Positions 5,509-46,438 of a stretch of 46,438 nt of DNA are shown here, piece by piece. Location: IMG/VR virus record IMGVR_UViG_3300045988_112125; one strand, written 5' to 3'. The notes beneath the pieces are model-generated. The model was not told where the DNA came from and did no database searches. It was given only the letters and a program-made list of their open reading frames with translations. A program made the translations under genes and the position numbers. Every line of letters begins with the position of its first letter. Positions within the stretch are counted from its first letter, which is position 1. The DNA is from a virus.

Positions 5509-6390
5509 ATGGGAAGAGATATCACACAGTGCCACCCTAGATTACAGGCAGCTGCCACAAAACTGATAGCTGAATGTGCGAAGCGTGGTATTGCAATTAA
5601 GATTGGTGAGTGTTACCGTACTGTGGCAGAGCAGGATGCTTTATATGCGCAGGGACGCACGAAGCCTGGAAACATCGTGACGAATGCCAAAGGAAGCAGT
5701 TACAGCTCACAGCATCAGTGGGGGATTGCAGCGGATTTCTACCGGGCGGACGGAAAAGGCGCGTACAACGAGTCAGGAGATTATTTCAACCGGGTTGGGG
5801 CGATCGCCAAGCAGCTGGGGCTTGCATGGGGTGGCGATTGGAAAAGCATCGTAGACAAGCCACACGTATATTTGCCGGACTGGGGGAGCGGTACTAATAT
5901 CCTTAAGAAACAGTATGGAAACCCTGAGACATTCCGTAGAACGTGGACAGGTGTAAATCCAGGCCCTATGAAGCCTGCACCCAGACCAAACCCTATCATT
6001 AAGGATGGACAGATACACGTCAACAACTTTGTAGGGGCTGGCATTCCTGTAGATGGTTATGATGGGCTTAAGACACGCAAGGCTGCTGTCATGGCTTTAC
6101 AGTCTGGTCTTATCTGGGATTATCATGTAGACATGGCACTATCAGGGGTATGGAGCTCAACATGGGATTCACTGCTTAGAGGTAAGGCAGTAAAACAGGG
6201 CAGCAAAGGAATGATGGTTACAGCCACGGAGATTCTGCTCATGCTGAAAGGGTACAATCCTAGGGGGGTTGAGTGCCCCGGTATCTGTGCAGACGGGCTT
6301 ACTAATACCATCATGAGGTACCAGAAGGAACACGGCCTCGCTGTAGATGGTATTGCTGGCTACAATACCCTCAAGTCACTGATTGGTTAG
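5509..6390 (+). CDS. Endolysin: M15 (VanY-like) peptidase plus PG_binding_1 domain
   Basis: N-terminal CYRTVAEQDALYAQGRT...SQHQWGIAADF...GGDW...DKPH. C-terminal MRYQKEHGLAVDGIAGYNTLKSL. Confidence 0.9.
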   Translation: MGRDITQCHPRLQAAATKLIAECAKRGIAIKIGECYRTVAEQDALYAQGRTKPGNIVTNAKGSSYSSQHQWGIAADFYRADGKGAYNESGDYFNRVGAIAKQLGLAWGGDWKSIVDKPHVYLPDWGSGTNILKKQYGNPETFRRTWTGVNPGPMKPAPRPNPIIKDGQIHVNNFVGAGIPVDGYDGLKTRKAAVMALQSGLIWDYHVDMALSGVWSSTWDSLLRGKAVKQGSKGMMVTATEILLMLKGYNPRGVECPGICADGLTNTIMRYQKEHGLAVDGIAGYNTLKSLIG

Positions 6391-23054: not shown

Positions 23055-25289
23055 ATGAGGACGTTTAAGGTTGAACTTGATACAGCTTATGCAGATAAAG
23101 CAATAAAAGAAACTGGTCTTTTACAAGGTAACCAGAACTTTGCTTTTGAGTTTAGGCTTGCTGAGCGTGGTGAACCCATTACCATTGATAATATGAAAAA
23201 GCCGAAGCTCATTTTTAATTTTGAAAATGGTGTAGAATCGTTTACTGTAGATGAGTCTTCTCCAGACTATCCGGTAACGGTGGCTGGCAATGTAGTAAAA
23301 GTAGCAGCTAGTAAATATCTGTCGATGGGTTATGGAAGAGTTAAGTTAATGATTAAGATTGACGATTATTACACGTACAGCTGCATTTACTATGTTGACA
23401 GAAACGAAAACTTTACAGCTCCACCTGTAGCTCAGAGTGATGCTGGTGATTTTGCACTTAAAGACTTTAAGAATGTATCAAATGATGTATTCAAACAGAA
23501 ATATAAGGAAGCTGTTAAAGAACCTATGTCTGATGCGGACTTTCTAGCTCAGGCGAAAAAGAACGGACTGGCAGAAAACGACCTTGCTGACGTAGACCTT
23601 CAAAAGCTGTATGATAAAGGAATTGATTCAGGCTTAATGTCAAAAGATGGTTCAAACTTTTCTCCGTCTGATTTTGACAGAGAGCTCAAAGCAAATGCAG
23701 CTTTTAGGGCTTTACAGAATGCAGATTACCCAGCCATGAAAGGGAAAACTGATGCAGAGATAAAAGGCTTATTCTATGCTAACAGATATGAAGTTCAAGC
23801 AGCTATTGACTTATCACAGCCGCCATACAAAGATGCTACAACACTATATTTAGCATTTCAGCTTACAAGTGAGAAGCAAAAGATAACCCAGATTCTTCCA
23901 CCTCATAGTGATGGTAAAATCATTATGGTGGAGTTGATATTCTCAACAGGGGTATCATCAGGCTCCCTAGAGATAGGTGCAGCCTCAGGGGAAAGCATAG
24001 AGGGTGTTGTTTTGGCTGGTTCGATGACATTCACAAAACCGGGGTATTTAGGTTACTTCCTGCCATTTAAAAATGAATCAGGTTATGATTTTATATCACA
24101 CCATGAAACGCATGATTATTCGATGCAGTTTATGGATGGTCTGAAAAATGAATGGTTTACTTCTCAGAACATTCAATCTATGGATAGAACTGTTAGAATT
24201 GCTAAGCTAGGCGAAAACGCAGATTTTTCTGTAGAGGGTGTAAAAGGGCATGACGGTATTCTTGCTTTTGTTGGAAATGATCAGTTATACAATACAAAAT
24301 ATGACAAAGCAAAGATTTACTTTGGTGATGTCAGAGTTCAGGGTGGAGCTTTTGTTTACCAGAATTTGCAGAATAAATCGTTTGTGATTCAGGATATTAA
24401 TATGCAGGATGATTCAAACATGAGCGAAGGCACAACGTTCCTTGTGGCTTTATCTTATGTTCCGTCAGCCTATGAATTAGCACCATTAACTCAGGACGGT
24501 AAAATTATGCTGGAGCTTGTGGACAATAATGAATCGCCTATTCTGGATATAAATGGCAATCCAATGGGGGTTGAAGTCGAGTACAAAACTGATGACGTGC
24601 AGAGAAAAGAGCTGTATGTTGGAGAGTGCAGAGTAAAAGACTATACAGAAGTTCACTTAAAGCTTAAAACTACGTTTGCAAATGAGGAAATTTTAAGCGT
24701 TGGTGCTGATACCTGTATTATGCTACAAGCCATAAGTAAAAAAGAATCAGCAGGTATGGCTTTACTTGCTTTTATGGCTTTTACAGGATACAGAATTGGA
24801 TTTGACAACATTTACTACGGTACAAATTCCCTGAATTTAGCCCAGTATCTTACTTTTGATATGGTTGAGCAAGAAGTAGCACCTACTACAATGTATTTAG
24901 GGGATGATACTTACTTTGACTTTAAGACAAAGGTAAAAGCAGCTATTCAGAACTATCAGCTGATTATCAAAGACAACGGAACTGATTTACCTGTGTTTTC
25001 AATCGTGAAACGGTATAGCAAGTTTGCAACTCACTACATAGGTGGGAAGGAGTATAATACCACGGTTAAAATCACAGACAAAAATAATGCCTTTCAGATA
25101 AATCTGATGAAATATACAGGAATACAAAACCCTGCACCGTTACCGTCTGTTCAGAGCTATGATGATGGTTCACCAGTGTTCCCTGCTGATTGGGAGGTGG
25201 TAGACTCGTTATTCATTTCAGAAGATGCTGTATCTGGGATTCATACTGCTATGAAAAATTTAACCTGCCATCTGATGGTAAAGAATTAG
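23055..25289 (+). CDS. Large tail fibre / receptor-binding protein (744 aa form)
   Basis: AAGGAGGTG RBS. Last large gene of the tail module. No family recognised beyond its position. Confidence 0.6.
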   Translation: MRTFKVELDTAYADKAIKETGLLQGNQNFAFEFRLAERGEPITIDNMKKPKLIFNFENGVESFTVDESSPDYPVTVAGNVVKVAASKYLSMGYGRVKLMIKIDDYYTYSCIYYVDRNENFTAPPVAQSDAGDFALKDFKNVSNDVFKQKYKEAVKEPMSDADFLAQAKKNGLAENDLADVDLQKLYDKGIDSGLMSKDGSNFSPSDFDRELKANAAFRALQNADYPAMKGKTDAEIKGLFYANRYEVQAAIDLSQPPYKDATTLYLAFQLTSEKQKITQILPPHSDGKIIMVELIFSTGVSSGSLEIGAASGESIEGVVLAGSMTFTKPGYLGYFLPFKNESGYDFISHHETHDYSMQFMDGLKNEWFTSQNIQSMDRTVRIAKLGENADFSVEGVKGHDGILAFVGNDQLYNTKYDKAKIYFGDVRVQGGAFVYQNLQNKSFVIQDINMQDDSNMSEGTTFLVALSYVPSAYELAPLTQDGKIMLELVDNNESPILDINGNPMGVEVEYKTDDVQRKELYVGECRVKDYTEVHLKLKTTFANEEILSVGADTCIMLQAISKKESAGMALLAFMAFTGYRIGFDNIYYGTNSLNLAQYLTFDMVEQEVAPTTMYLGDDTYFDFKTKVKAAIQNYQLIIKDNGTDLPVFSIVKRYSKFATHYIGGKEYNTTVKITDKNNAFQINLMKYTGIQNPAPLPSVQSYDDGSPVFPADWEVVDSLFISEDAVSGIHTAMKNLTCHLMVKN

Positions 25290-26062
25290 CCATAGTTCTT
25301 TATCCAGTATCTTCTCAGATTCCTACCGTGCTTAAATTGAATGACTTTGAGGGTGATATTGTGCCGGGGTTTAACAAATTGGTTATAACTACAAACAGTC
25401 ACATCAAGGAGCAATATCTGGAATTTAGTAAGGAGTATTACAAAGCCAGAGTAGATACTCCAAAGGGTGATGCAAGTTACCGATATACGGTCAACGATTC
25501 ATCTACGAAAATTCCAGCAGGAGTTATTACAGGTGGTGATGGAAAAATAGTAAATGATAATAGTTGGTCTGATGCAGGCTCCAGTGACCCACTGAAAGTG
25601 CAAGGCGACTTTAAATTCCTTGTAGATGGTAATGTTAATATGGAATATCAGGCTCAGATTTTTAATGAGACAGGAACTATTAACAATGTTGAAATATGGC
25701 TTGCAAAAGTAGGCCCTGGCCCAGACATGCTGACAGAGGTATCTAGCAGTAAGCTTTCTACTACGATTGAAGCCAACAGAATGAAGCCCAAAAAGGTTTA
25801 CTCAAAATCGTTTAGCTTCTCTGCAAAAGCCAATGAAACTTACAGAGTTCTGGCTAAATCAAACGTAGCGGACGGATTCTATTTACAGAGTGGTACAGAC
25901 GGCGTTCCGCTGTTTGCAGCATCTATTGTGTTTGATGAAACTAATGGACGCCCGGCAGCTATGGACAATGCTCCTGTGATTCAAGTTATGGAAGATGGTA
26001 AACCCATAGCTGGTAAGACAATTCAGATTGATTCAAAAACTGGTGCTATCACAGTAAAATAA
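25262..26062 (+). CDS. C-terminal extension of the large fibre, reached by a -1 shift (or an indel artefact)
   Basis: The -1 frame is open to 26062 and has no RBS or credible start. The slippery heptamer A_AAT_TTA lies at 25256-25262 in the zero frame. Confidence 0.5.
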   Translation, partial: NLPSDGKELAIVLYPVSSQIPTVLKLNDFEGDIVPGFNKLVITTNSHIKEQYLEFSKEYYKARVDTPKGDASYRYTVNDSSTKIPAGVITGGDGKIVNDNSWSDAGSSDPLKVQGDFKFLVDGNVNMEYQAQIFNETGTINNVEIWLAKVGPGPDMLTEVSSSKLSTTIEANRMKPKKVYSKSFSFSAKANETYRVLAKSNVADGFYLQSGTDGVPLFAASIVFDETNGRPAAMDNAPVIQVMEDGKPIAGKTIQIDSKTGAITVK

Positions 26063-28880: not shown

Positions 28881-29113
28881 CTTCTCTTCTTCTTTCTGTT
28901 CTTATGCACTTCCCACATAGCCCACATCATGATAACACCTATGAAGAATATAAGACAGGTGATTGGAGCCATTACCAAAGCCCAGCTCCAGCTCACTACG
29001 TCTGTCAGCTTAAGCATGATAAACACGGCCTGAATTAACCACACACTTAGCGTCATAGTCTTACCAATCATTACTGCACAGCCCTCCGGCCCGGGGTTAC
29101 TCACTTTCTTCAT
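28877..29113 (-). CDS. Small membrane protein (start uncertain; MKKVSNPG chosen)
   Basis: Two hydrophobic helices and a basic C-terminus (KNRKKKRR). Alternative starts lie at 29134 and 29122. Confidence 0.5.
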   Translation of the reverse strand: MKKVSNPGPEGCAVMIGKTMTLSVWLIQAVFIMLKLTDVVSWSWALVMAPITCLIFFIGVIMMWAMWEVHKNRKKKRR

Positions 29114-29411
29114 TACCACCATTTCCCTCCTCAATGCTCTCTAAAAGCTGAATAACGTCAATTATGCTGTAGCAAATCCCACACAGCGCACCGGCTTGTT
29201 CCCAACGCTTTAAGTACCGCTTCTGTTTTTCGCTAGGTTTATATCCTGTGTCCGGGCTTTTCAGTTCTATTTTAAAGCACCGTCCCCTGTAGCATCCGTT
29301 TATATCAGCCCTGCCAGACTGCTTTGCATTTCCACTGACATTTTCAGCTATGCAACCCGGTATACTGTTAAGGAGTTTTAAAACCTTAGACTGAAGAGCT
29401 GATTCTCTCAT
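29097..29411 (-). CDS. VRR-NUC domain nuclease
   Basis: GRADINGCYRGRCFKIELKSPD...SEKQKRYL, matching the D..ExK..Q pattern. It sits beside the SNF2 helicase, a common phage pairing. Confidence 0.75.
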   Translation of the reverse strand: MRESALQSKVLKLLNSIPGCIAENVSGNAKQSGRADINGCYRGRCFKIELKSPDTGYKPSEKQKRYLKRWEQAGALCGICYSIIDVIQLLESIEEGNGGNEESE

Positions 29412-29775
29412 AAATTGACCCCCTTAGCCTACTGTACTTTGCTACCGCTTTGTCATCCCAGTACTCATTGGCGTATATCTTTCTTGTGTCATTGTTGAAC
29501 ATATGCTGTACTTCAGATATATTTGTATTTATTGAATCAAAATACAATCCGTTCATGGTGCAAAAGTCTATTGCTTCAGCAAGCTGACGGCCATCACGTG
29601 ATGTCCATAAGACAACTTTAGCCCCAGTTCTCTGTGCTTGGATTAAATCAACCCACACCTGTGGCCTTGGCTTGCCAATATACGGAAACTCATCCTCCAC
29701 AAGTGTTCCATCAAAGTCCACTGCAATAATATACGGCAGCTTACTCATCTCTTCTTTTGATATGGTATTAATCAT
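29386..29775 (-). CDS. HAD-superfamily phosphatase
   Basis: Motif I AVDFDGTL. Small cap-less HAD architecture, 129 aa. Confidence 0.65.
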   Translation of the reverse strand: MINTISKEEMSKLPYIIAVDFDGTLVEDEFPYIGKPRPQVWVDLIQAQRTGAKVVLWTSRDGRQLAEAIDFCTMNGLYFDSINTNISEVQHMFNNDTRKIYANEYWDDKAVAKYSRLRGSIYERISSSV

Positions 29776-30121
29776 AATACTTTAACTCCTCTTCCATGTG
29801 TTTTGTCAGCCATGCCCTTACCCACCCTTGACGGTCTGTGACAGTCTCCCGGAAGAAATATGGGTATGCCTTGTGGTAAAACTCCATTATCAGTTTTCTT
29901 GCTATTAAAATATCATTGCTGTGAGTCATGGGTGTTTTATATCCAAAATCATCCTCAACCCATCTGGAAATATACCCAGCTAAATCAGACCGCGTTATAC
30001 CTAACTTTGTCAGAAACTCATAATACACTTCGCTTTTCATGTAGCAAAAGTGAAACCATAGGAATTGGTCTGTAGCATTGTCAACTACTTTTATTTTTAC
30101 CTTTGTCATCATATCTGCCAT
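29768..30121 (-). CDS. Hypothetical protein (117 aa; start moved to MADMM)
   Basis: AGGGGGTG RBS 5 nt before the ATG at 30121. No family recognised. Confidence 0.55.
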   Translation of the reverse strand: MADMMTKVKIKVVDNATDQFLWFHFCYMKSEVYYEFLTKLGITRSDLAGYISRWVEDDFGYKTPMTHSNDILIARKLIMEFYHKAYPYFFRETVTDRQGWVRAWLTKHMEEELKYYD

Positions 30122-30132
30122 TGGCACACCCC

Positions 30133-30879
30133 CTATAAAACAGGTGTACCGTCTACAGACTGAGTGTAACTTTTATCTAAGTTTTCCAAGGCTTTTTTGT
30201 AGTCTCTTGCGTACATATGGAGTGAACCGGCGTTGTGTGTATACGTTCCCAGCTCAAGACCTAGCTCCATAGCCAGTCTAACCTGCATAGCTGTAAACTG
30301 GAGTACGTCATTAGGGTAGCCCATCCATAAATCATTAGAACGCATATTTGTCACCATGTAGAGCCTTCCATCACGCACAAAAAACTGAAGGTAAACCGTG
30401 CAGTTAACGTCTTTTGTGGGGTTGTCCAGCAGGTTCCTGGGTTCCTTGATATGAATAACTGCCTGTCTGCTGCTAGGGTCTATTGAGAGTAGGTTTTTTA
30501 CAAACTCCATCTGATCGAACCCGTACTTTTTCATTATGCAGTGGCCGTAATTGCTGTTCACAGTTTTGCCGTTATCGCTCATTCTGTCCCATGCGTTTGT
30601 GTAAAGCTTAATCGCATCAAGGTTTGGGTTACCAGACAGGTACCATAGCAGTTCACCAATAGCATACCGCATTGGAAGTTTTCTTATCGGTGTCTTGAGG
30701 ATACATCTTGTAGGGTCTTTAATAACTGTGGTGCAATTTAGAATCTCACCAACTACAGCTCCGTCCCGGCTGTCAGCTTCATATCCGTTTTGTGCCTGCC
30801 TGCTAATCTCTGAGAACAGATTTAACCACGCTTCATCAATATTCTCATAAACACCATGCTTAAACTCTAAAATACCCAT
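30133..30879 (-). CDS. ThyA-family deoxycytidylate hydroxymethylase-like enzyme (T4 gp42-like)
   Basis: Motifs ELLWY, VNSNYG, NC(160)TVYLQFFVRDG, MRSND, YPND(191)VLQF and GSLHMY. The Cys-to-Asp spacing of 31 residues matches T4 gp42 C148/D179 as I recall it. Confidence 0.75.
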   Translation of the reverse strand: MGILEFKHGVYENIDEAWLNLFSEISRQAQNGYEADSRDGAVVGEILNCTTVIKDPTRCILKTPIRKLPMRYAIGELLWYLSGNPNLDAIKLYTNAWDRMSDNGKTVNSNYGHCIMKKYGFDQMEFVKNLLSIDPSSRQAVIHIKEPRNLLDNPTKDVNCTVYLQFFVRDGRLYMVTNMRSNDLWMGYPNDVLQFTAMQVRLAMELGLELGTYTHNAGSLHMYARDYKKALENLDKSYTQSVDGTPVL

Positions 30880-30880
30880 A

Positions 30881-31393
30881 TTACACCTCCGAAGTATTCC
30901 ACTCTTTTACGTTCAGAATGGAGCAGTTAAACGTACCTCTAAACTTTGCGATAATGTCCTCAACCGGCGTTCCACCCATGATAGCCTCTTTCCTTGCGTC
31001 AAGTCTTTCCCTGATGTCTTCGGGGTCTGCTACCACATGAATTACGGTAGCTCCGGCCTCTAACATTTCAGTTTCCAGCAGGTTAAGCATGGTTACAGCT
31101 GCCTGCCTATTCGGTACCTCGTACACATTGTTACCAATCACAACGCTGTGCGTTCCTTCCATCGGTATGCTCAGCGGCCTGTCCTGTTCTTCCTGATATA
31201 CGAATTGGCCATAACAGAACCGGTCTGCAATAATATTCCGTGTCTTGCTGACCTCAATAATACTATGGAAAAATGTATAGTTGTTTGGTGTAAACTGTGT
31301 GCAGTGAATAACCTCTGCATTCATAATCTCTGCCAGCTTTTTAGCCAGTGTGCTTTTACCTGAACCATCACAACCCTCTAACACAATTAGCAT
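30881..31393 (-). CDS. dNMP kinase (thymidylate kinase-like)
   Basis: P-loop LEGCDGSGKST, 170 aa. The gene starts 1 nt downstream of the ThyA-like gene's stop... corrected: its stop (30881) lies 1 nt upstream of the ThyA-like gene's start codon (30879). Confidence 0.75.
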   Translation of the reverse strand: MLIVLEGCDGSGKSTLAKKLAEIMNAEVIHCTQFTPNNYTFFHSIIEVSKTRNIIADRFCYGQFVYQEEQDRPLSIPMEGTHSVVIGNNVYEVPNRQAAVTMLNLLETEMLEAGATVIHVVADPEDIRERLDARKEAIMGGTPVEDIIAKFRGTFNCSILNVKEWNTSEV

Positions 31394-31551
31394 TTTGTTT
31401 CCTCCCTCTTAATGTCAATTCTTATCACGTTTTTAACCCTGTAGACAGTAATTTTTCCGTCTATGAGCTTAAACTCCATTTTTGGTATTTCAGGGTCATC
31501 TACTAACTTTCTGTATGCTCTGTTTATCCATTCTAAGTACTCACGCTCCAT
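31387..31551 (-). CDS. Small hypothetical protein (54 aa; below the ORF-track cutoff)
   Basis: GGAGGAG RBS. The ATG at 31551 lies 3 nt after the upstream stop, and its own stop overlaps the downstream ATG (ATGCTAA). Confidence 0.5.
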   Translation of the reverse strand: MEREYLEWINRAYRKLVDDPEIPKMEFKLIDGKITVYRVKNVIRIDIKREETKC

Positions 31552-31554
31552 ATT

Positions 31555-32445
31555 CTACTCCTCCATTTTCCAATAGTTCCACTTAAATTTCAGGCTTTCC
31601 CACCCTGATTTTGTGGTCTTAAACCCAACCCCTTTATGGCTTTTTCCTTTAAGTACTACTCTTACAAATCTGCTGTTTAAGGTCTTATATTTTTCATTGA
31701 CTTCTTCATCGTTTTTGCATCCCCCAGAGTTAGAACCTATGCTTGGACAATCATAAACTAAGTCTCTAAACACTATAGTTTTTAAGCCTTTTTCCATGCA
31801 CTCAAACTGAAGAGCATAGTCATCAACCCCTACCTCAGAATTGGCTCTAAAATTTATCTTATTATCCTTTAACTGTTTTGTGTTTACATGAATACACTGG
31901 ATGCAACACCCGCAGTTATACACATATGCTGAATTTTTATTCCTGATATTCCACCAATCACTCTTTAACCCCGGAGCTGATAACGCAACTTCATACTTTC
32001 TTTCCTGTATGAGCTTAACCCACATCTTTAATGCATAAGCATTTACATTGTAAGGCCTTCCGGTATTTGTGGAATGAACCCTCATAACCATTTTTCCGTT
32101 TTTAGTTGGGGCTGGCTCTAGAAAATCAAGAAGCCTTATGTCATCATCAATTAAGAAAATATTGTCGATACCTTTTTTCCAGCAATATCTTATAATTGCT
32201 GCTTTTGTGCTCCCTCCATCATGCACATTTTTCAGCTTAACTATGATAAACCTATCACCATACTTTTTGTACAAATTATACTGCTCTTTTCTTATGAAAA
32301 GTATAACACTATATCTATTTTGAGTATAAAGGTTTTTTAACAGAGTCGCTTCTGGCCTGTTGTAGGATGGTATGCAGATAGGAAATATTTCACTATCTTT
32401 CATATGCTTACTGCACCATTTTGCCATTTTATGTGCTCTATACAT
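31555..32445 (-). CDS. GT-A (GT2-like) glycosyltransferase; candidate DNA base glycosyltransferase
   Basis: N-terminal FPICIPSYNRPE and DxD-type IFLIDDDIRL. The target is inferred only from its operon context with the hmC-type enzyme and the kinase. Confidence 0.55.
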   Translation of the reverse strand: MYRAHKMAKWCSKHMKDSEIFPICIPSYNRPEATLLKNLYTQNRYSVILFIRKEQYNLYKKYGDRFIIVKLKNVHDGGSTKAAIIRYCWKKGIDNIFLIDDDIRLLDFLEPAPTKNGKMVMRVHSTNTGRPYNVNAYALKMWVKLIQERKYEVALSAPGLKSDWWNIRNKNSAYVYNCGCCIQCIHVNTKQLKDNKINFRANSEVGVDDYALQFECMEKGLKTIVFRDLVYDCPSIGSNSGGCKNDEEVNEKYKTLNSRFVRVVLKGKSHKGVGFKTTKSGWESLKFKWNYWKMEE

Positions 32446-32492
32446 ATTCACCTCTTATCATAAAGGGGGGCCGTAGCCCCCTGTTTTAATGC

Positions 32493-33299
32493 TTAAGCCT
32501 CTTCCCAGTCTTCTTCGTCCTCTTCCTCATCGTCTTCATCTTCAGGCTCAGGCTTTTTAGCCTTATTAGCAGGCTTAGAGGCTTTTTTGGCTGGTTTCTT
32601 TACCGATTTAGACTCTTCCTCATCCTCTTCCTCGTCTTCGTCAAAGTCTTCCTCGTCATCTTCTTCTGGCTCTGGGGCTTTCTTCTTAGGGGACTTCTTC
32701 GCCGGTTTTTTAGCTGGCTTTTTCGGCTGCTCCTCTTCCTCGTCTTCATCCTCATCGTCAAAGTCTTCGTCTGACTCATCCTCGTCATCCTCTACAGGCT
32801 TTTTCTTCTTGACTGTGGTTTTTCCTTTCTGAACTTTTTTGGATGGCTTTTTGCCCGGTTTTTCGTCCTCAGCCTCATCCTCATCATCAAAGTCCTCAAC
32901 CTCATCATCCTCAGCATCATCAGACTCAGCAGACAGTTTCCGATATTCCTGAATACGGGCTCTGGTCTGTCCGTTATACTCCTCATGTTTAACCTCAATT
33001 ACCAGAACCTTGCCTTCCAGCTTATCTAAGTCAAGTGAAATCTTACCATTGGCTTTCATACCTACAGCTTGGAGCATAGCTTTGAGCTTCCACAGGGCTG
33101 TATCCACCAGAGGATAATTCTCATACACTCTTGCACCCTTGTCTTCACCACGGATAACTTCAAAGCAGCACACCAACATATCATTTCCACCCTGAGAGGT
33201 CTTCTCCTCAATAGACTGGATTTTTACAACGTGTCTTCCCTCGCTTGCCTTGCTGAATGCTTCTACTCCTGTCATGTCTACCTTTAATCTTCTAGCCAT
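32493..33299 (-). CDS. DUF669-like (SSB-like) protein with a long polyampholyte K/E/D tail
   Basis: The N-terminal ~125 aa resemble DUF669, and the gene sits beside a Sak4-like ATPase. The C-terminal ~140 aa alternate acidic and basic blocks and end in EEDWEEA. Confidence 0.55.
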   Translation of the reverse strand: MARRLKVDMTGVEAFSKASEGRHVVKIQSIEEKTSQGGNDMLVCCFEVIRGEDKGARVYENYPLVDTALWKLKAMLQAVGMKANGKISLDLDKLEGKVLVIEVKHEEYNGQTRARIQEYRKLSAESDDAEDDEVEDFDDEDEAEDEKPGKKPSKKVQKGKTTVKKKKPVEDDEDESDEDFDDEDEDEEEEQPKKPAKKPAKKSPKKKAPEPEEDDEEDFDEDEEEDEEESKSVKKPAKKASKPANKAKKPEPEDEDDEEEDEEDWEEA

Positions 33300-35066: not shown

Positions 35067-35558
35067 CTACTCTTCATCGTCCTCTACTTCTTCATACTCG
35101 TCATCGTCATCGTCATCCTCTTCAGGTTCCGGCTCTTTTACTTTTTTCTTAGAAGGTTTCTTAGATTTTGCCGGTTTCTTTTTAGAAGCCTCTTCCTCCT
35201 CGTCATCCTCTTCCAGCTCTTCCTCTTCATCTTCTTTGACTTTCTTTTTCTTAGCCTTTGCAGCCTCAGCAGCCTTCTTACGCATCTCAGCCTTTTCCTG
35301 CTTTGCTTTTGTAGCTTTGCGGATGTCACGAGGATTTACGTATGAGCCATCATCCTCAATGATGATATTAGCGTAAGCCGGATTCTTAGGGTTAAGCTGC
35401 TTACCGGATTTTCTGTCAAACTCTACCTCTGAGCCATCAGCCTTCTTAATGGTGATAATCTTTGCATCAGCCTTTACTACTGGATAAACTCCAAGCTTCA
35501 TTCCTGTGAAACCACACATAATAACAGTGTTCCCTTTTTTGATTTTTGCAAGTGACAT
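35067..35558 (-). CDS. Hypothetical protein: FTGM small domain plus polyampholyte tail
   Basis: The N-terminal ~60 aa are paralogous to the C-termini of 43324..44142 and 44925..45269. The C-terminal half consists of alternating K-rich and D/E-rich blocks. Confidence 0.6.
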   Translation of the reverse strand: MSLAKIKKGNTVIMCGFTGMKLGVYPVVKADAKIITIKKADGSEVEFDRKSGKQLNPKNPAYANIIIEDDGSYVNPRDIRKATKAKQEKAEMRKKAAEAAKAKKKKVKEDEEEELEEDDEEEEASKKKPAKSKKPSKKKVKEPEPEEDDDDDDEYEEVEDDEE

Positions 35559-35617: not shown

Positions 35618-35691
35618 TGGGTCTTATAGGACTCGAACCTACGGCCGTCCGGTTATGAGCCGGATGCTCTAACCAACTGAGCTAAAGACCC
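35618..35691 (-). tRNA. tRNA with anticodon CAT (elongator Met or lysidine-dependent Ile2)
   Basis: Cloverleaf read by eye: acceptor GGGTCTT/AAGACCC, D arm GCTC-AGTTGGTTA-GAGC, anticodon arm TCCGG-CTCATAA-CCGGA, T arm GTAGG-TTCGAGT-CCTAT, discriminator A. No CCA is encoded, and it is not initiator-like (G1-C72, no GGG/CCC stem). Confidence 0.9.
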
Positions 35692-36083: not shown

Positions 36084-37808
36084 TTAGTGGGTTCCCCACT
36101 TTCCAACACCACAGTCTGAGTCAAGTTTTACTCTCAGCTTCACGCCAAACTTGTCCATTAGCGCCGGGTGTGCCATAATTTCCTTGATTCTGGGTACAAT
36201 CCAGTCCTTGTCTTCTTCTCTGAACTCACCGAGGATTGAATCATGGACTGTTCCGACAATTTTTAACCCATAAGGAGTTAACTCCTTATGTATCTGTATG
36301 GCAGCACTCAGGAGTATGTCTGAGCCTGTACCCTGTACCGGGGTGTTAATGGCTCTACGCTCTGCACCACCTTTCTTACCCCAGTCTCTACTGTAAATAT
36401 CGGGGAGCTTCCTAAACCGTCCGAAAAGATTGTAAACACCGCCCAGAGCTTCGGCTTTTCTACGCTGTTCTTCATGCCACGGCAGCAGTCTGGAATACTT
36501 TGCGAAAAACAGTTCACGGAACCGCTCAGCCTCTGACAAAGTAAACACCACACCGTAAGAGGCAAAAGCATAATCAACGAACTTTTTGGCCCCCATGCCG
36601 TACAGGAACCCGAAGTTAACAGCTTTGGCCTTGCCTCGCTCTTCCTTTGTAGGCTGACGGCCTCCTGTCATTAGCATAGCTGTTTCTGTGTGGATGTCGC
36701 CATCTTCAGCATAAATTTTGAGCATGGTAGGCTCATTGGCATAGTGAGCAGCAATTCTGAGTTCCAGCTGGGAATAGTCTGCCTCAAAGAAACATCGGCC
36801 CTCTGTGGCATGGAATAGCCCTCTAACGTCCTTTGTCCGTGGTACTTGCTGTAAGTTTGGGTCTGTGCAGCTTGTCCGTCCGGACACCACATTAGTTAAG
36901 TTGAACGATGGGTGTATTCTACCGGTATAAGAGCTGTCCTCGCCCCAACGATTTAGGAACATTTTGTTCAGGGTATTTGCAGCTGTATAGTCAAGAATCA
37001 TGTTAGGAATCTCATACCCCTGTGAGGCCAGTCTTTTTAGGGCTTTTGCACTAGTACTAGGTTCACCTTTTGGGGTCTTTTCTACCACTGGCAAGCACTC
37101 CCCTTTAGGGCTTTTGAACAGCACTTCAGCCTTCTGCTGTGGGCTGTTCCAGTTTATATCATATTTCTTCTTAAGAGCTTCCAGCTTTTCAGCTTCAATG
37201 TCTTTATATTTCTTCTTTACAACCTTAAACTCTTCCCTGTCAAAGTATATGCCGTTTCTTTCCACATCACGATACATAAGGTAGGCAGGTTTAAGAAGCT
37301 TAAGATATATCGCCATCTGCTCCTCTGTCAGCTTTTTCCAGAAAAATCGGAATAACTCCCATGTGTACCTGACGTCTTTCTTAAGATATGGTATTAGGGT
37401 GTTACGGCTGTCTGCATTCTTATTCAGCTTGTCAGCCTTCTTTATATCCCAATCCTCTACCCCTAAGTATCTTTTAGCCATGGCCTTAAGACCATGTTCA
37501 GCAGCTAAATCATACGCTGTACCCATTAGCATTACATCATGTGTTATTGGTATTTTTATGTCATAGGCTGTTTCAATAAATAGTGTGTCAAACTTACCAT
37601 TTTGAAATACAGTCTTAGCTTTATTTCTTTTAAACTCATCCACCAAACTTTTAAATGTGTACTCATTCTCTGGCTTACTCATGTCAAGGATATACCCTTT
37701 ATAAATTTTGCTGTCCGGGTCTCTTGCTACCCCTATACCGATGAAAGTTATTCTATCCTTGAATCGGTTTAGTCCAGTGGTCTCTATATCAATCGTTACA
37801 TACATCAA
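36084..37808 (-). CDS. Family A DNA polymerase with 3'-5' exonuclease domain
   Basis: Exo I TIDIETTGL, motif A DYSQLELRIAAH, motif B RGKAKAVNFGFLYGMG, motif C VHDSIL. Confidence 0.95.
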   Translation of the reverse strand: MMYVTIDIETTGLNRFKDRITFIGIGVARDPDSKIYKGYILDMSKPENEYTFKSLVDEFKRNKAKTVFQNGKFDTLFIETAYDIKIPITHDVMLMGTAYDLAAEHGLKAMAKRYLGVEDWDIKKADKLNKNADSRNTLIPYLKKDVRYTWELFRFFWKKLTEEQMAIYLKLLKPAYLMYRDVERNGIYFDREEFKVVKKKYKDIEAEKLEALKKKYDINWNSPQQKAEVLFKSPKGECLPVVEKTPKGEPSTSAKALKRLASQGYEIPNMILDYTAANTLNKMFLNRWGEDSSYTGRIHPSFNLTNVVSGRTSCTDPNLQQVPRTKDVRGLFHATEGRCFFEADYSQLELRIAAHYANEPTMLKIYAEDGDIHTETAMLMTGGRQPTKEERGKAKAVNFGFLYGMGAKKFVDYAFASYGVVFTLSEAERFRELFFAKYSRLLPWHEEQRRKAEALGGVYNLFGRFRKLPDIYSRDWGKKGGAERRAINTPVQGTGSDILLSAAIQIHKELTPYGLKIVGTVHDSILGEFREEDKDWIVPRIKEIMAHPALMDKFGVKLRVKLDSDCGVGKWGTH

Positions 37809-40331: not shown

Positions 40332-40727
40332 CTACACACATGGAAGAAGAGCCTCGCTATCACAACTCCTACACAAACTGCTCACAGGCTTGTCCTCAAT
40401 TTCTCTGTCTTCTGTGGTGATCTGCTGAGTTTTTTTGCCGGTCTTCAGCCATCTGTTCAGCCTGTTAATTTTGACCTCTTTTCTGGCCTCAATCTCTGAC
40501 TGGTTAAGTTCCATTATGGCTTTCACATGCTCCAGAATAACCTCTACATCTGCTACCTCGTCTATGACTTTGTCATGTAACTCAGCTCTTGCGTCAGCCT
40601 CGCTATCATATCTAGGGTATTTCGCCAAAACACAGGCTAGCTCATTAAGTTCCTCAATGCAGACCATGATCTGATTCTTACTACCGTATACTTCTCTGGC
40701 CTTAGCCAGTACCTCATTATTACTCAT
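40332..40727 (-). CDS. MazG-like nucleoside triphosphate pyrophosphohydrolase
   Basis: CIEELNELACVL...KVIDEVADVEVILEH, matching the EExxE...DExxD all-alpha NTP-PPase pattern. Confidence 0.7.
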   Translation of the reverse strand: MSNNEVLAKAREVYGSKNQIMVCIEELNELACVLAKYPRYDSEADARAELHDKVIDEVADVEVILEHVKAIMELNQSEIEARKEVKINRLNRWLKTGKKTQQITTEDREIEDKPVSSLCRSCDSEALLPCV

Positions 40728-40738
40728 GCGCTACCTCC

Positions 40739-41221
40739 TTAATTATTCTTATCTGGTGCTTTCCAATCAACGTGATGAACTGCTACTCCACCGGCCTCAA
40801 GTATTGCAGCTGTGTAAGGCGAAATTTCCTCGTCACGGCCATAGAACACTTCCTTAATACCAGCAGCTGTAATAGCTCTAGCACAGGCTTCACAAGGATA
40901 CCGGGTTACAACCATAATTGCGCCAGCGGTATCTATACCCACTGAAGCTGCTCTGGAAATGGCATCCACCTCGCTATGAATGCTGTTGCAATCAGATGGG
41001 AGCCTGTGCTGCTTTGAGTCATCACCATACAGCTTCACACGTCTGCACCCGTCTTTAATGCAGTCATAGCCTATCCCACGGTTAGCTCCGTAGACAATGT
41101 ACCCACTTTTAGACAAAAGAGCACAGCCTACTTTTACTTTTGTGCATCCTGAATATTCATTAGCATACTCCTGAGCTTTTTCAAAAAACTCGTTTATAAT
41201 CTGTCTTACTTTATCTGTCAT
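40739..41221 (-). CDS. dCMP deaminase (ComEB/cytidine-deaminase fold)
   Basis: Zinc motifs HSEVDAI and PCEACARAI. 160 aa. Confidence 0.85.
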   Translation of the reverse strand: MTDKVRQIINEFFEKAQEYANEYSGCTKVKVGCALLSKSGYIVYGANRGIGYDCIKDGCRRVKLYGDDSKQHRLPSDCNSIHSEVDAISRAASVGIDTAGAIMVVTRYPCEACARAITAAGIKEVFYGRDEEISPYTAAILEAGGVAVHHVDWKAPDKNN

Positions 41222-41226
41222 ACTTT

Positions 41227-41796
41227 CTACCTCCCCATAATCTTGCTGGCTCCCATGTCTGCCATGTGAGTATAAAGTACGTTAGGATACTTGTGAATAG
41301 CTGCATCAAATTCATTCCACTCATCTGTCTGGTATGCACCCATGTGATACCGAATGCAAAGCATCTCTTCTTCTGTTAAGTCCGGCACAAGCTGTAAAGC
41401 CCTAATAACTGACAGCTCCCCGTGTCCTTTCCATACAAGGTTTTTTGTGTATTCGTAGTGGTAATTTACAGTGGCCTCGTCACAGTCCCAAGAGTCAGCT
41501 ACCTGTGTATATGTACCCAACTTACATAAATCGTGCAGCATGCCTACAATAATCGGGGAATCCACCCTCTTCCACTTAAGCCCTAACCGCAAAGTACACT
41601 TGCAAAGTAGCTCAGTGACAGCGATACTGTGACTCATAAGACCACCCTCTACAGCCCCGTGATACTTTGCGCTGGCTGGGCAGGTTAAGTAACCCATATT
41701 GATAAGTCTGTCACATGCTTTACCCTGTAACCGAGTACCTATAAGAATATCTCTTAATACCTCTTCCTGCTCAGTAATGTTAACTCTCTTTGTCAT
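41227..41796 (-). CDS. HD-domain phosphohydrolase
   Basis: PASAKYHGAVEGGLMSHS and MLHDLCK (H...HD). Resembles the YhaM-type HD module. Confidence 0.7.
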   Translation of the reverse strand: MTKRVNITEQEEVLRDILIGTRLQGKACDRLINMGYLTCPASAKYHGAVEGGLMSHSIAVTELLCKCTLRLGLKWKRVDSPIIVGMLHDLCKLGTYTQVADSWDCDEATVNYHYEYTKNLVWKGHGELSVIRALQLVPDLTEEEMLCIRYHMGAYQTDEWNEFDAAIHKYPNVLYTHMADMGASKIMGR

Positions 41797-42121
41797 GTTC
41801 TCCTCCTATTTTACAGTACTCAGCTACAGATGATACGTAGCAACTGATACTGGGTTTTTTATTTCCCATAAGTACACTGAGCACAAGCTCATCCGGGCAC
41901 CTCTCCGTGGACTTAGCTATCGCATATCGTGCAGCCCTCTCTACAGCTTTCCAATGTGCGTTGTGAGTACTGCCTATTTTTTTGTACTCCCTACAAAAAG
42001 AAATATCTGCGCCCTTTTCTACAGCTTCTTTTGTACATTCCACAAGGTACTCAAACCCTTTAAGATGGACTGGAACTCCCATTTTAAATAGGAGCCTTCT
42101 GACCTTTAAATCTAAGCTCAA
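41780..42121 (-). CDS. Stand-alone Spo0A C-terminal (DNA-binding) domain protein
   Basis: TTG start 5 nt after GGAGGTG. MGVPVHLKGFEYLVEC, AVERAARYAIAKS and KKPSISCYVSSVAEY parallel B. subtilis Spo0A IGVPAHIKGYLYLREA, RVERAIRHAIEVA and KPTNSEFIAMVAD. No receiver domain is present. Confidence 0.75.
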   Translation of the reverse strand: MSLDLKVRRLLFKMGVPVHLKGFEYLVECTKEAVEKGADISFCREYKKIGSTHNAHWKAVERAARYAIAKSTERCPDELVLSVLMGNKKPSISCYVSSVAEYCKIGGEHDKES

Positions 42122-46383: not shown

Positions 46384-46438
46384 CCGTCTAGCCACTGCGT
46401 CATCATTTATACTGGCTGCCTGCATTACAGCACCCCCA
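46384..46438. repeat. Terminal direct repeat, right copy (identical to 1..55)
   Basis: Read directly from the sequence. Confidence 0.9.

Follow-up and report, generated by a model that had tools for sequence, protein, structure and literature searches.

Does a short minus-strand operon in a viral genome encode the machinery for a hypermodified cytosine, and which modification would it produce? The question is raised by positions 29386-32445 of IMG/VR record IMGVR_UViG_3300045988_112125, a stretch of 46,438 nucleotides (nt), which is referred to as the window. An earlier note on this DNA had described a cytosine hypermodification operon built around a T4 gp42-like ThyA-family enzyme, with 5-hydroxymethylcytosine (5hmC), probably glycosylated, as its product. 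We consider T4-style two-stage cytosine hypermodification leading to glycosylated 5hmC DNA to be the probable function of the locus and assign this reading a probability of about 0.72. The operon consists of the following genes (lengths in amino acids, aa):

29386-29775, minus strand: HAD phosphatase with a DFDGT motif
29768-30127, minus strand: 119-aa open reading frame (ORF), conserved, with an orphan fold
30133-30879, minus strand: ThyA-family enzyme, 248 aa, PF00303
30881-31393, minus strand: P-loop kinase of 170 aa, similar to thymidylate kinases (TMPK) and deoxynucleoside kinases (dNK), with P-loop and DRF motifs
31387-31551, minus strand: 54-aa ORF between the glycosyltransferase (GT) and kinase genes
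31555-32445, minus strand: GT-A glycosyltransferase of the TAGT family, 296 aa, PF20691

All six ORFs of the earlier description were present and only starts had to be refined. For the GT, a start at MYRAHK is favoured both by homologs and by a gene call made independently at ENA, which gives 31555-32445 instead of 31555-32451, and the same ENA call shortens the 119-aa ORF to 117 aa. The genes are contiguous and lie within the replication module. Intergenic spacing from the GT gene to orf127 ranges from -38 to +11 nt, and most genes are preceded by a strong Shine-Dalgarno sequence of the GGAGG type. The PF00303 and PF20691 matches were far beyond chance and both exceeded the Pfam gathering scores. 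The motifs on which the earlier description was built were all found in the window: ELLWY, VNSNYG, NCTVYLQFFVRDG, MRSND, GSLHMY, and YPNDVLQF in the ThyA-family enzyme, EGCDGSGKST in the kinase, ICIPSYNRPE and FLIDDDI in the GT, and DFDGTL in the HAD protein. The motifs of T4 gp42 that had been given for comparison (ELEWY, INSNYG, MCTNTVQYLIRD, MRSND, and GSLHVY) were also correct.

The ThyA-family enzyme matched PF00303 over residues 29-238 with E=8.5e-26 and 91.1 bits (cutoff 24.3). In a search of solved structures, the CMP hydroxymethylase MilA was by far the best match (E=1e-31), ThyA structures matched no more strongly than 4.5e-18, and T4 gp42 gave 2e-13. Identity was approximately 39% to MilA and 27% to T4 gp42. 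The likeness to gp42 proposed initially thus holds for the active-site pattern, which is the same, but the protein as a whole is closer to the MilA/BcmA clade. All NCBIfam cutoffs for ThyA equivalogs were failed, the best score being 72.8 bits against 327. The C-terminal segment of ThyA, about 45 residues long, is absent, and the window protein ends some 25 residues past GSLHMY. The family is large, with 1770 proteins at E<=1e-10, nearly all of which are unannotated or named 'thymidylate synthase'.

To map the diagnostic residues, the enzyme was aligned with T4 gp42, SPO1 gp29, Escherichia coli ThyA, the portion of MilA that could be aligned, and homologs from Agathobaculum and Enterococcus phages. 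The catalytic Cys160 corresponds to C146 of E. coli ThyA and C148 of T4 gp42, and the general base Glu76 to E58 and E60; both residues had been noted earlier, and both are invariant. The alignment also confirmed the predicted aspartate, Asp191, at the position of E. coli N177. Aspartate occurs here in T4 gp42 (D179) and MilA, while ThyA and SPO1 gp29 have Asn. The distance from the catalytic Cys to this residue is 31 in the window enzyme (C160-D191), T4 gp42 (C148-D179), and E. coli ThyA (C146-N177). Experimental swaps between Asp and Asn at the N177 position switch pyrimidine specificity, and studies by mutagenesis and by metagenome association connect this residue with the choice between cytosine and uracil (PMC13326640, PMC5175136, PMC8670742). 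A second residue, Thr161 at the H147 position, is the same as T149 of T4 gp42 and differs from the residues in ThyA and SPO1 gp29; this position ranked second in association with modified-cytosine contigs in MetaGPA (PMC8670742). The predicted dCMP substrate is therefore retained on the basis of Asp191, as in T4 gp42 and MilA.

The earlier note held that sequence alone cannot separate hydroxymethylase from methylase chemistry. This is out of date: the literature now uses the L143 and D169 positions to tell the products apart, and here the residues at both favour hydroxymethylation. At the L143 position, Leu accompanies methyl products and Asp or Glu hydroxymethyl products, a difference explained by water access (PMC13326640). 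The window enzyme has Asp157 at this position, and Asp is likewise present in T4 gp42 (D145), MilA, and SPO1 gp29 (D159), whereas E. coli ThyA has Leu. The shared Asp in T4 gp42, MilA, and SPO1 gp29 validates the alignment. At the D169 position, Asn is the signature of flavin-dependent 5-hydroxy-dCMP synthases of the RB69 gp48 type, which was validated on nine diverse homologs (PMC13326640). Asp183 is retained here in the window enzyme and in all of the 80 related IMG/VR loci that were fetched via the family alignment for comparison, 23 of which are syntenic with the window.

The closeness to MilA raises the question of which sugar the substrate carries. In MilA, Ala176 and Lys133 select ribo-CMP, and the A176S/K133R mutant no longer uses CMP (PMC5175136). 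The window enzyme carries Ser181 and Arg138 at the corresponding S167 and R126 positions, the deoxyribo-type pair, on which a CMP-specific enzyme of the MilA type was rejected. Identity as a dCMP methylase was also rejected, on the replacement of Leu143 by Asp157. The diagnostic residues were invariant across 38 family members, and 76 of the 80 viral loci compared agreed at all eight signature residues; deviations in the remaining four are confined to R138T, D157E, or absence of the N-terminus. On this residue evidence, the product of 30133-30879 is most likely a dCMP 5-hydroxymethylase, with dCMP as the predicted substrate and a hydroxymethylated nucleotide as the predicted product. By alignment, it belongs to the MilA-proximal clade of ThyA-family dCMP hydroxymethylases, yet has deoxyribo-type residues.

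Phage AB434P2 (OP172633.1) encodes a homolog (locus L001, 3838-4500) annotated as 'deoxyuridylate hydroxymethyltransferase'. This protein possesses Asp183 at the N177 position and the full dCMP-type signature, and the deposited annotation probably names the wrong substrate.

The kinase encoded by 30881-31393, immediately next to the ThyA-like gene, displays a P-loop (GCDGSGKS, residues 7-14) and a DRF motif (57-59). It had been described as a Tmk-like kinase of deoxynucleoside monophosphates (dNMPs). The P-loop, the DRF motif, and an N-terminal match to Pfam Thymidylate_kin agree with this, but that match is confined to residues 5-36 and the score for TIGR00041 (37.7 bits) is far below the cutoff of 83. 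The best match in PDB, and the only full-length solved relative, is the protein YorR of prophage SPbeta (2axp, E=6e-10). The kinase is also 30% identical over 114 aa (E=1e-11) to a kinase of Enterococcus phage Planchet encoded directly upstream of the ThyA-like gene.

Identity as a 5-hydroxymethyldeoxyuridine (5-hmdU) DNA kinase of family PF18748 was considered as well. No profile match to PF18748 was obtained at E<=0.1, and when one such protein of a sister phage was compared by BLASTP, the alignment spanned 16 P-loop residues and nothing more. Kinases of the window type and PF18748 proteins occur together in loci L008, L044, L045, L047, L058, and L066, which argues for a separate role. The PF18748 identity was therefore rejected on the similarity restricted to the P-loop and on this coexistence. 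In RB69 and DLP3, ThyA homologs require a cognate dNMP kinase for the modified base to reach DNA (PMC13326640). For this reason, a kinase of 5-hydroxymethyl-dCMP (5hm-dCMP) is the most economical assignment for the window protein, its substrate being deduced by analogy.

The third component is the GT encoded by 31555-32445. It matched Pfam TAGT (PF20691) with E=3e-11 and 44.1 bits (cutoff 27.5), residues 23-235 covering positions 1-197 of the 205-position profile, and phrog_842, which is named for the T-even beta-glucosyl-HMC-alpha-glucosyltransferase (E=7e-13). Relatives of this protein are rare: 22 were found among 5.8 billion proteins, PF20691 being detected in 20 of them, and tblastn against 50,697 phage genomes yielded no matches. 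Among the relatives, R32 (in PSYNRP), D102-D104 (DDD), and D211 are invariant and Y212 is nearly so (E/D-D-Y). This is the pattern R...DDD...EDY/F described by Pyle et al. (2023, bioRxiv 10.1101/2023.12.21.572611) for phage GT-A enzymes whose glycosylation of 5hmC DNA was established by experiment.

The AF2 model of the GT (pLDDT 91.5, pTM 0.90) places DDD directly after the central strand 97-101. The assignment to the GT-A fold made earlier is borne out by PF20691, by this model, and by GT-A matches in both PDB and BFVD. In BFVD, the top matches were TAGT-domain proteins (E=4e-24, TM 0.78-0.85), including the T2/T6-type beta-glucosyl-HMC-alpha-glucosyltransferase. In PDB, the model matched generic GT-A enzymes, namely GlfT2, RmlT, AvpGT, TarP, and K4CP, with E=5e-7 to 1e-4 and TM 0.4-0.5. 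The enzyme thus groups with phage TAGT DNA glycosyltransferases and not with GT2 enzymes of the cell envelope; clustering with the latter had been named in the earlier note as a possible refutation. Two other refuting conditions of that note, Asn at the N177 position and loss of the catalytic Cys, were not borne out by the alignment either.

The window ORFs were scanned for further components. No other GT and no gene for sugar-nucleotide biosynthesis was found among them. As the sole GT without sugar-nucleotide genes, the enzyme would add the first sugar, taken from a nucleoside diphosphate (NDP)-sugar of the host. Neither a TET/JBP (5mYOX) dioxygenase nor a DNA cytosine C5-methyltransferase was detected in the same scan. 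The association with TET/JBP gave TAGT its name, but part of the family does without it, namely T6 and the ThyS-associated members (Pyle et al. 2023). Taken together, the profile matches and the model point to a putative 5hmC-DNA glycosyltransferase of the TAGT family with a GT-A fold. This rare TAGT subfamily would act as the sole, first-sugar transferase. The view that a GT-A enzyme acting on hmC DNA would be a poorly described solution was overstated: GT-A/TAGT enzymes acting on hmC or glucosyl-hmC DNA had been reported for T2/T6 and by Pyle et al. (2023), and metavirome clusters combining ThyS with GT-A have already been surveyed.

Four further genes of the window have a potential role in the nucleotide pool and in replication:

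40332-40727, minus strand: MazG-like nucleoside triphosphate pyrophosphohydrolase, 131 aa (phrog_2245, E=1.5e-15)
40739-41221, minus strand: dCMP deaminase, 160 aa (PF00383, E=2e-17; PF14437, E=2e-14; phrog_174)
41227-41796, minus strand: HD-type metal-dependent phosphohydrolase, 189 aa (phrog_28876, E=1.6e-22; phrog_5889)
36084-37808, minus strand: family A DNA polymerase (phrog_17, E=5.5e-124; PF00476 in a near-identical ENA contig)

The HD hydrolase, dCMP deaminase, and MazG-like genes lie upstream of the operon on the same strand. The MazG-like protein gave no Pfam match and no PDB sequence match; it is a candidate dCTPase, which would supply dCMP and remove dCTP, because of the analogy to T4 gp56 and the co-occurrence reported in MetaGPA (PMC8670742). 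For the HD protein, which also lacked Pfam and PDB matches, a role as a hydrolase of (deoxy)nucleoside triphosphates or of dNMPs is possible. In the MetaGPA study, ThyA homologs on metagenomic contigs with experimentally demonstrated cytosine modification co-occurred with phosphoribosyl-ATP pyrophosphohydrolase (PF01503), dCMP deaminase, and MafB19 deaminase (PMC8670742). The pool enzymes of the window come close to this set, with a presumed PF01503-type link for the MazG-like protein, for which Pfam gave no match. dCMP deaminase is also among the annotations tied specifically to one type of pathway by Pyle et al. (2023).

The following sequence of steps can be proposed. Before replication, the MazG-like pyrophosphatase, possibly together with the HD hydrolase, would turn dCTP into dCMP. 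The ThyA-family enzyme would transfer the one-carbon unit of methylene-tetrahydrofolate to C5 of dCMP via Cys160, and water, let in by Asp157 in place of the Leu of ThyA, would trap the exocyclic methylene to yield 5-hydroxymethyl-dCMP. The adjacent TMPK-like kinase would form the diphosphate and a host NDP kinase 5hm-dCTP, which the family A polymerase of the phage would incorporate in place of dCTP. After replication, the TAGT GT-A enzyme would glycosylate the 5-hydroxymethyl group in DNA, with an NDP-sugar of the host as donor. DNA glycosylated in this way would be shielded from restriction and CRISPR nucleases. The content and order of the genes, their families, the active-site residues, the GT-A fold and motifs, and the recurrence of the kinase, GT, and ThyA genes in other phage lineages are observations, whereas each of these activities, the dCTPase role, the extent of cytosine replacement, and the identity of the sugar are inferred.

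The comparison set shows which parts of the locus are kept among related viruses. The order ThyA-like gene, 119-aa ORF, HAD gene, VRR-NUC nuclease, and SNF2 helicase was conserved throughout the 23 syntenic loci. The slot flanked by the DUF669 and ThyA-like genes was variable: six loci carry only a TAGT-like GT, 13 only a PF18748 kinase, three both, and one neither. PF18748-type examples at the position syntenic to window 31555-32445 are L042 8772-9386, L054 7516-9120, L053 8228-9211, L052 8537-9385, L047 2657-3307, and L063 5173-6189. The PF18748 kinase in this slot is usually accompanied by, and sometimes fused to, an unknown protein of about 315 aa. Genes for Radical-SAM/SPASM proteins, methyltransferases, and Fe-ADH are scattered among the loci. 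The ThyA-like enzyme of the sister phages with PF18748 kinases nevertheless possesses the full cytosine signature. This combination suggests either kinase-dependent cytosine hypermodification or deamination of hm-dCMP; a literature search for a kinase acting on 5hmC DNA, or for kinase-dependent cytosine hypermodification, retrieved no paper.

The triad of kinase, GT, and ThyA-like genes recurs outside the syntenic group. In L019 (8330-10681) and L016, IMG/VR contigs of an unrelated lineage with PolIII-alpha, DnaG, and RecA that seems to include the Agathobaculum phages, a TMPK-like kinase, a GT-B enzyme (PF13524), and a ThyA-like gene with about 60% identity are located just upstream of a DnaE-type polymerase. 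In Enterococcus phages of the genus Denvervirus, genes for a dUTPase, a small HAD-like protein, and three GTs come after the kinase-ThyA pair. Repeated pairing of the ThyA-like enzyme with GTs of different folds speaks for a product with a hydroxyl that accepts the sugar.

Several observations weigh against glycosylated 5hmC as the end product. Instead of a GT, 13 of the 23 syntenic sister phages have cassettes with a PF18748 '5-hmdU DNA kinase', a family characterised only on DNA containing 5-hydroxymethyluracil (5hmU). The solved-structure neighbours of the GT are GT-A enzymes of teichoic-acid and cell-wall synthesis, and the sole classical TAGT member, that of T2/T6, adds the second sugar onto glucosyl-hmC and not the first. 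The closest cultured relative of the ThyA-like enzyme shares just 55% identity with it and carries the annotation of a dUMP enzyme. The dCTPase assignment has a single basis, the PHROG match. Finally, the encoded dCMP deaminase, along with the PF18748 cassettes of the sister phages, leaves room for conversion of hm-dCMP to hm-dUMP.

The last point leads to an alternative, a 5hmU pathway. Here, dUMP would be hydroxymethylated as in SPO1, or hm-dCMP would be deaminated, and the GT would glycosylate 5hmU to a product resembling base J. The dCMP deaminase of the window would fit such a pathway, but T4 encodes a dCMP deaminase too, so its presence does not discriminate. Similarly, the closest cultured homolog, from an Agathobaculum phage, bears the name 'deoxyuridylate hydroxymethyltransferase', an annotation contradicted by its own Asp183. 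Domains of the PF18748 type are present in 16 of the 23 syntenic sister phages, TAGT/GT-A enzymes are structurally akin to the base-J glucosyltransferase (Pyle et al. 2023), and the HAD protein is 37% identical (E=6e-15) to SPO1 gp30.2 (L006 30565-30969), which is encoded two genes after the SPO1 dUMP hydroxymethylase. Against these stands the active site: Asp191 is invariant in the family, whereas SPO1 gp29 and E. coli ThyA, the true dUMP enzymes, have Asn at this position, where the swaps cited above are known experimentally to switch specificity (PMC13326640, PMC5175136, PMC8670742), and T161 agrees with T149 of T4 and not with ThyA or SPO1 gp29. We therefore regard a 5hmU product as unlikely.

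Alternatively, the ThyA-like enzyme and the GT could be functionally unrelated. The former would then produce 5-methyl-dCMP, as in XP12, or bare 5hm-dC, and the latter would act on a polymer of the cell envelope or on a virion protein. GlfT2, RmlT, TarP, and K4CP, the best solved matches of the GT model, are indeed GT-A enzymes of cell-wall and teichoic-acid synthesis, but validated GT-A enzymes acting on 5hmC DNA give equally weak PDB matches of the TarP type (Pyle et al. 2023, bioRxiv 10.1101/2023.12.21.572611). Moreover, the GT of the window exceeds the TAGT threshold, and viral TAGT models matched it about 17 orders of magnitude better than any GT2 enzyme in PDB. As to 5-methyl-dCMP, N177D mutants of ThyA are dCMP methylases (PMC8670742), but in the window enzyme Asp157 replaces the water-excluding Leu143 that accompanies methyl products. 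The GT gene is also part of the replication module, where just the 54-aa ORF and the kinase gene separate it from the hydroxymethylase gene downstream, and GTs recur beside kinase and ThyA genes in two other lineages. Unrelated functions are accordingly quite unlikely.

A 5-hydroxycytosine pathway of the RB69/DLP3 type was rated as very unlikely. It would involve a flavin-dependent 5-hydroxy-dCMP synthase and a GT that ether-links a sugar to the C5 hydroxyl. ThyA homologs with N177D and L143D/E can be 5-hydroxy-dCMP synthases, whose partners are a cognate dNMP kinase and, at a later stage, DNA glycosyltransferases (PMC13326640). The published diagnostic for these enzymes, however, requires Asn at the D169 position, where the window enzyme and its 80 relatives keep Asp183, and the nearest solved relative, MilA, is a folate-dependent hydroxymethylase. 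An ordinary pair of 'thymidylate synthase' and 'thymidylate kinase' that boosts dTTP, the names under which PHROG and JGI list these genes, is most unlikely in view of the failed equivalog cutoffs, the Asp residues at the N177 and L143 positions, the missing C-terminal segment, and a scan of the window ORFs that found no DHFR.

With glycosylated 5hmC retained as the probable product, two conserved neighbours call for an explanation. The 119-aa protein is encoded between the ThyA-like and HAD genes in 23 of 23 syntenic loci and had zero family matches in four libraries. An exhaustive search identified about 121 unannotated representative clusters of this family; a search limited by k-mers gave just one near-identical cluster. 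The AF2 model (pLDDT 95.1) consists of a beta-hairpin and four helices, and no fold match was found in PDB (best E=0.56).

The HAD gene was likewise kept in all 23 syntenic loci. The proposed phosphatase was recovered by its DFDGT motif and by a match to PDB 2obb (E=8e-15), with an additional match to phrog_1238. Similarity to the BT0820-type family NF046079 was strong (E=1.2e-26), but its 93.7 bits remain below the cutoff of 165. Judged from these matches, the product of 29386-29775 is probably a small, capless HAD phosphatase of the BT0820 type. A link to pyrimidine hydroxymethylation is plausible, e.g. as a pool-editing nucleotidase, this role in the pathway being an assumption. It is equally possible that the protein is a 3'-phosphatase of DNA ends, as it is encoded beside the VRR-NUC and SNF2 genes. 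A small HAD gene also occurs beside pyrimidine hydroxymethylase genes in Enterococcus phages (L002 7243-7587, Planchet gp63). Such small HAD proteins are often misnamed 'phosphoheptose isomerase' or 'polynucleotide kinase'.

The 54-aa ORF at 31387-31551 had no family matches and was present only in near-identical contigs. PADLOC scans of the small unknown ORFs also returned zero matches. A more far-reaching proposal is that the 119-aa protein and the HAD phosphatase are undescribed parts of pre-replicative pyrimidine hydroxymethylation, e.g. the latter as a pool phosphatase that excludes the canonical nucleotide and the former as a scaffold or anti-restriction factor. In this proposal, the TAGT subfamily would install an unseen first sugar on 5hmC, and the GT slot would hold one of two exchangeable cassettes, the second of which, with the PF18748 kinase, the unknown protein of about 315 aa, a radical-SAM enzyme, and methyltransferases, would carry out kinase-dependent hypermodification of cytosine. 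Such chemistry has until now been demonstrated for thymine only. As a whole, this proposal is doubtful.

The upstream end of the operon was inspected for a boundary of this slot:

32466-32481, minus strand: GC-rich hairpin from a terminator-like scan, with six G-C pairs and a weak T tail, in the 47-nt gap between the DUF669 and GT genes

The hairpin is a possible attenuator or cassette boundary. Scans for promoters and terminators revealed no more sites in the region than in shuffled sequence, and the operon is not statistically defined by them.

The predicted strategy corresponds to that of T4, where gp56 dCTPase, gp42, the gp1 dNMP kinase, and the alpha- and beta-glucosyltransferases follow the same logic of pool editing, hydroxymethylation, phosphorylation, and post-replicative glycosylation. 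The residue pattern of gp42 is identical to that of the window enzyme at the 143, 146, 147, 167, 169, and 177 positions. The components differ in other respects. The window kinase is TMPK/YorR-like and is likened to gp1 by its predicted function only; the GT is a GT-A (TAGT) and not a GT-B enzyme, the polymerase belongs to family A and not B, and a predicted siphovirus-type virion and Firmicute host take the place of those of T4. TAGT enzymes of the MT/TET clusters, members of which were shown to glycosylate 5hmC DNA, resemble the window GT in fold and motifs (Pyle et al. 2023). Here, by contrast, no TET/5mYOX or cytosine methyltransferase partner was found, and 5hmC would come from the nucleotide pool. 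Unlike the T6 enzyme, which adds the second sugar, the window GT would add the first.

MilA and BcmA of nucleoside antibiotic biosynthesis provide a further parallel. MilA shares Asp at the N177 and L143 positions with the window enzyme, which differs in having Ser181/Arg138 in place of Ala/Lys and a context of phage DNA replication, not a secondary-metabolite cluster. The 5-hydroxycytosine arabinosylation systems of RB69 and DLP3 likewise combine an N177D ThyA homolog (with L143E), a cognate dNMP kinase, and DNA glycosyltransferases (PMC13326640). Their enzymes work with flavin and O2 and carry Asn at the D169 position, while the window enzyme keeps Asp183 and genes for NDP-arabinose were not found. 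SPO1-type hmU phages also have Firmicutes hosts and encode a dCMP deaminase, a family A polymerase, and a small HAD protein homologous to that of the window; their ThyA-family hydroxymethylase, too, is acidic at the L143 position. SPO1 gp29, however, has Asn at the specificity position, as expected for dUMP, and no GT is listed in the SPO1 record at 70-120 kb.

The Enterococcus Denvervirus phages Planchet, 9183, and VPE25 and the Agathobaculum phages AB434P2 and AB434P3 encode ThyA-like enzymes with 36-55% identity and the same signature. In the Enterococcus phages, the ThyA-like gene is adjoined by a homologous kinase gene and several GT genes; in the Agathobaculum phages, the neighbours are annotated as hypothetical only. 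Both groups differ from the window in genome size and lineage, in the families of their GTs (three GTs in Planchet), and in having a dUTPase in the cluster. The literature yielded no account of their modification chemistry; a study of enterococcal type IV restriction, in which phi47 was unmodified, did not address the Denvervirus relatives (PMC11322646).

The remainder of the window is consistent with a complete phage genome. Positions 1-55 and 46384-46438 overlap exactly over 55 bp, which indicates a circularly closed assembly and a complete genome of about 46.4 kb. The plus strand between about 2.8 and 26 kb encodes packaging, head, and siphovirus-type tail proteins (TerS/GP3_package, TerL, portal, major head protein, tape measure, Dit, and Sipho_Gp37), and the minus strand between about 46 and 26 kb carries early and replication genes. 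The same operon, at 99-100% protein identity, occurs in one IMG/VR contig and one ENA contig. Megablast of positions 29000-33000 against 50,697 phage genomes gave zero matches at the DNA level.

A 113-aa protein encoded at 41780-42121 on the minus strand consists of the C-terminal DNA-binding domain of Spo0A alone (PF08769, E=1.2e-10). This protein, the GGAGG-type ribosome-binding sites, and the nearest cultured relative of the key enzyme, from a phage of Agathobaculum butyriciproducens, support an endospore-forming member of the Firmicutes as the predicted host, and the gene content supports a siphovirus-type virion. The Spo0A_C-domain protein could interfere with the control of sporulation in the host.

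A few other features of the genome deserve mention. Two overlapping plus-strand ORFs, 23055-25289 and 25190-26062, match consecutive parts of phrog_10818 (profile positions 841-1169 and 1166-1397), which suggests that one gene for a distal tail or receptor-binding protein is interrupted by a frameshift, whether programmed or due to faulty assembly. The DUF669 protein resembling single-stranded-DNA-binding proteins (32493-33299, minus strand) and a ProQ_C-like protein of 163 aa (35067-35558, minus strand) both end in long, charged, low-complexity tails rich in Asp, Glu, and Lys. A tRNA-Met gene is located at 35618-35691 on the minus strand. An endolysin-like gene with peptidase_M15/VanY and PG_binding_1 domains (5509-6390, plus strand) lies between the large terminase and portal genes, an odd spot for a lysis gene.

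The predicted functional strategy of this operon is that of T4 and not a new principle, the pattern having been catalogued bioinformatically before (Iyer 2013; MetaGPA 2021; Pyle 2023). Its value lies in a clean example from a complete genome, which represents an uncharacterised group of Firmicutes phages and combines a rare TAGT subfamily with conserved, unexplained partners and with cassette swapping among relatives. If the proposed function is correct, this phage and its enzyme family of roughly 1800 members would add abundant, uncultured siphoviruses of gut-type Clostridia and Firmicutes to the T-even coliphages and synthetic TET clusters as sources of glycosylated 5hmC DNA. This would bear on the resistance of these phages to restriction and CRISPR, on why sequencing under-represents or mis-basecalls them, and on the supply of further DNA glycosyltransferases for 5hmC labelling.

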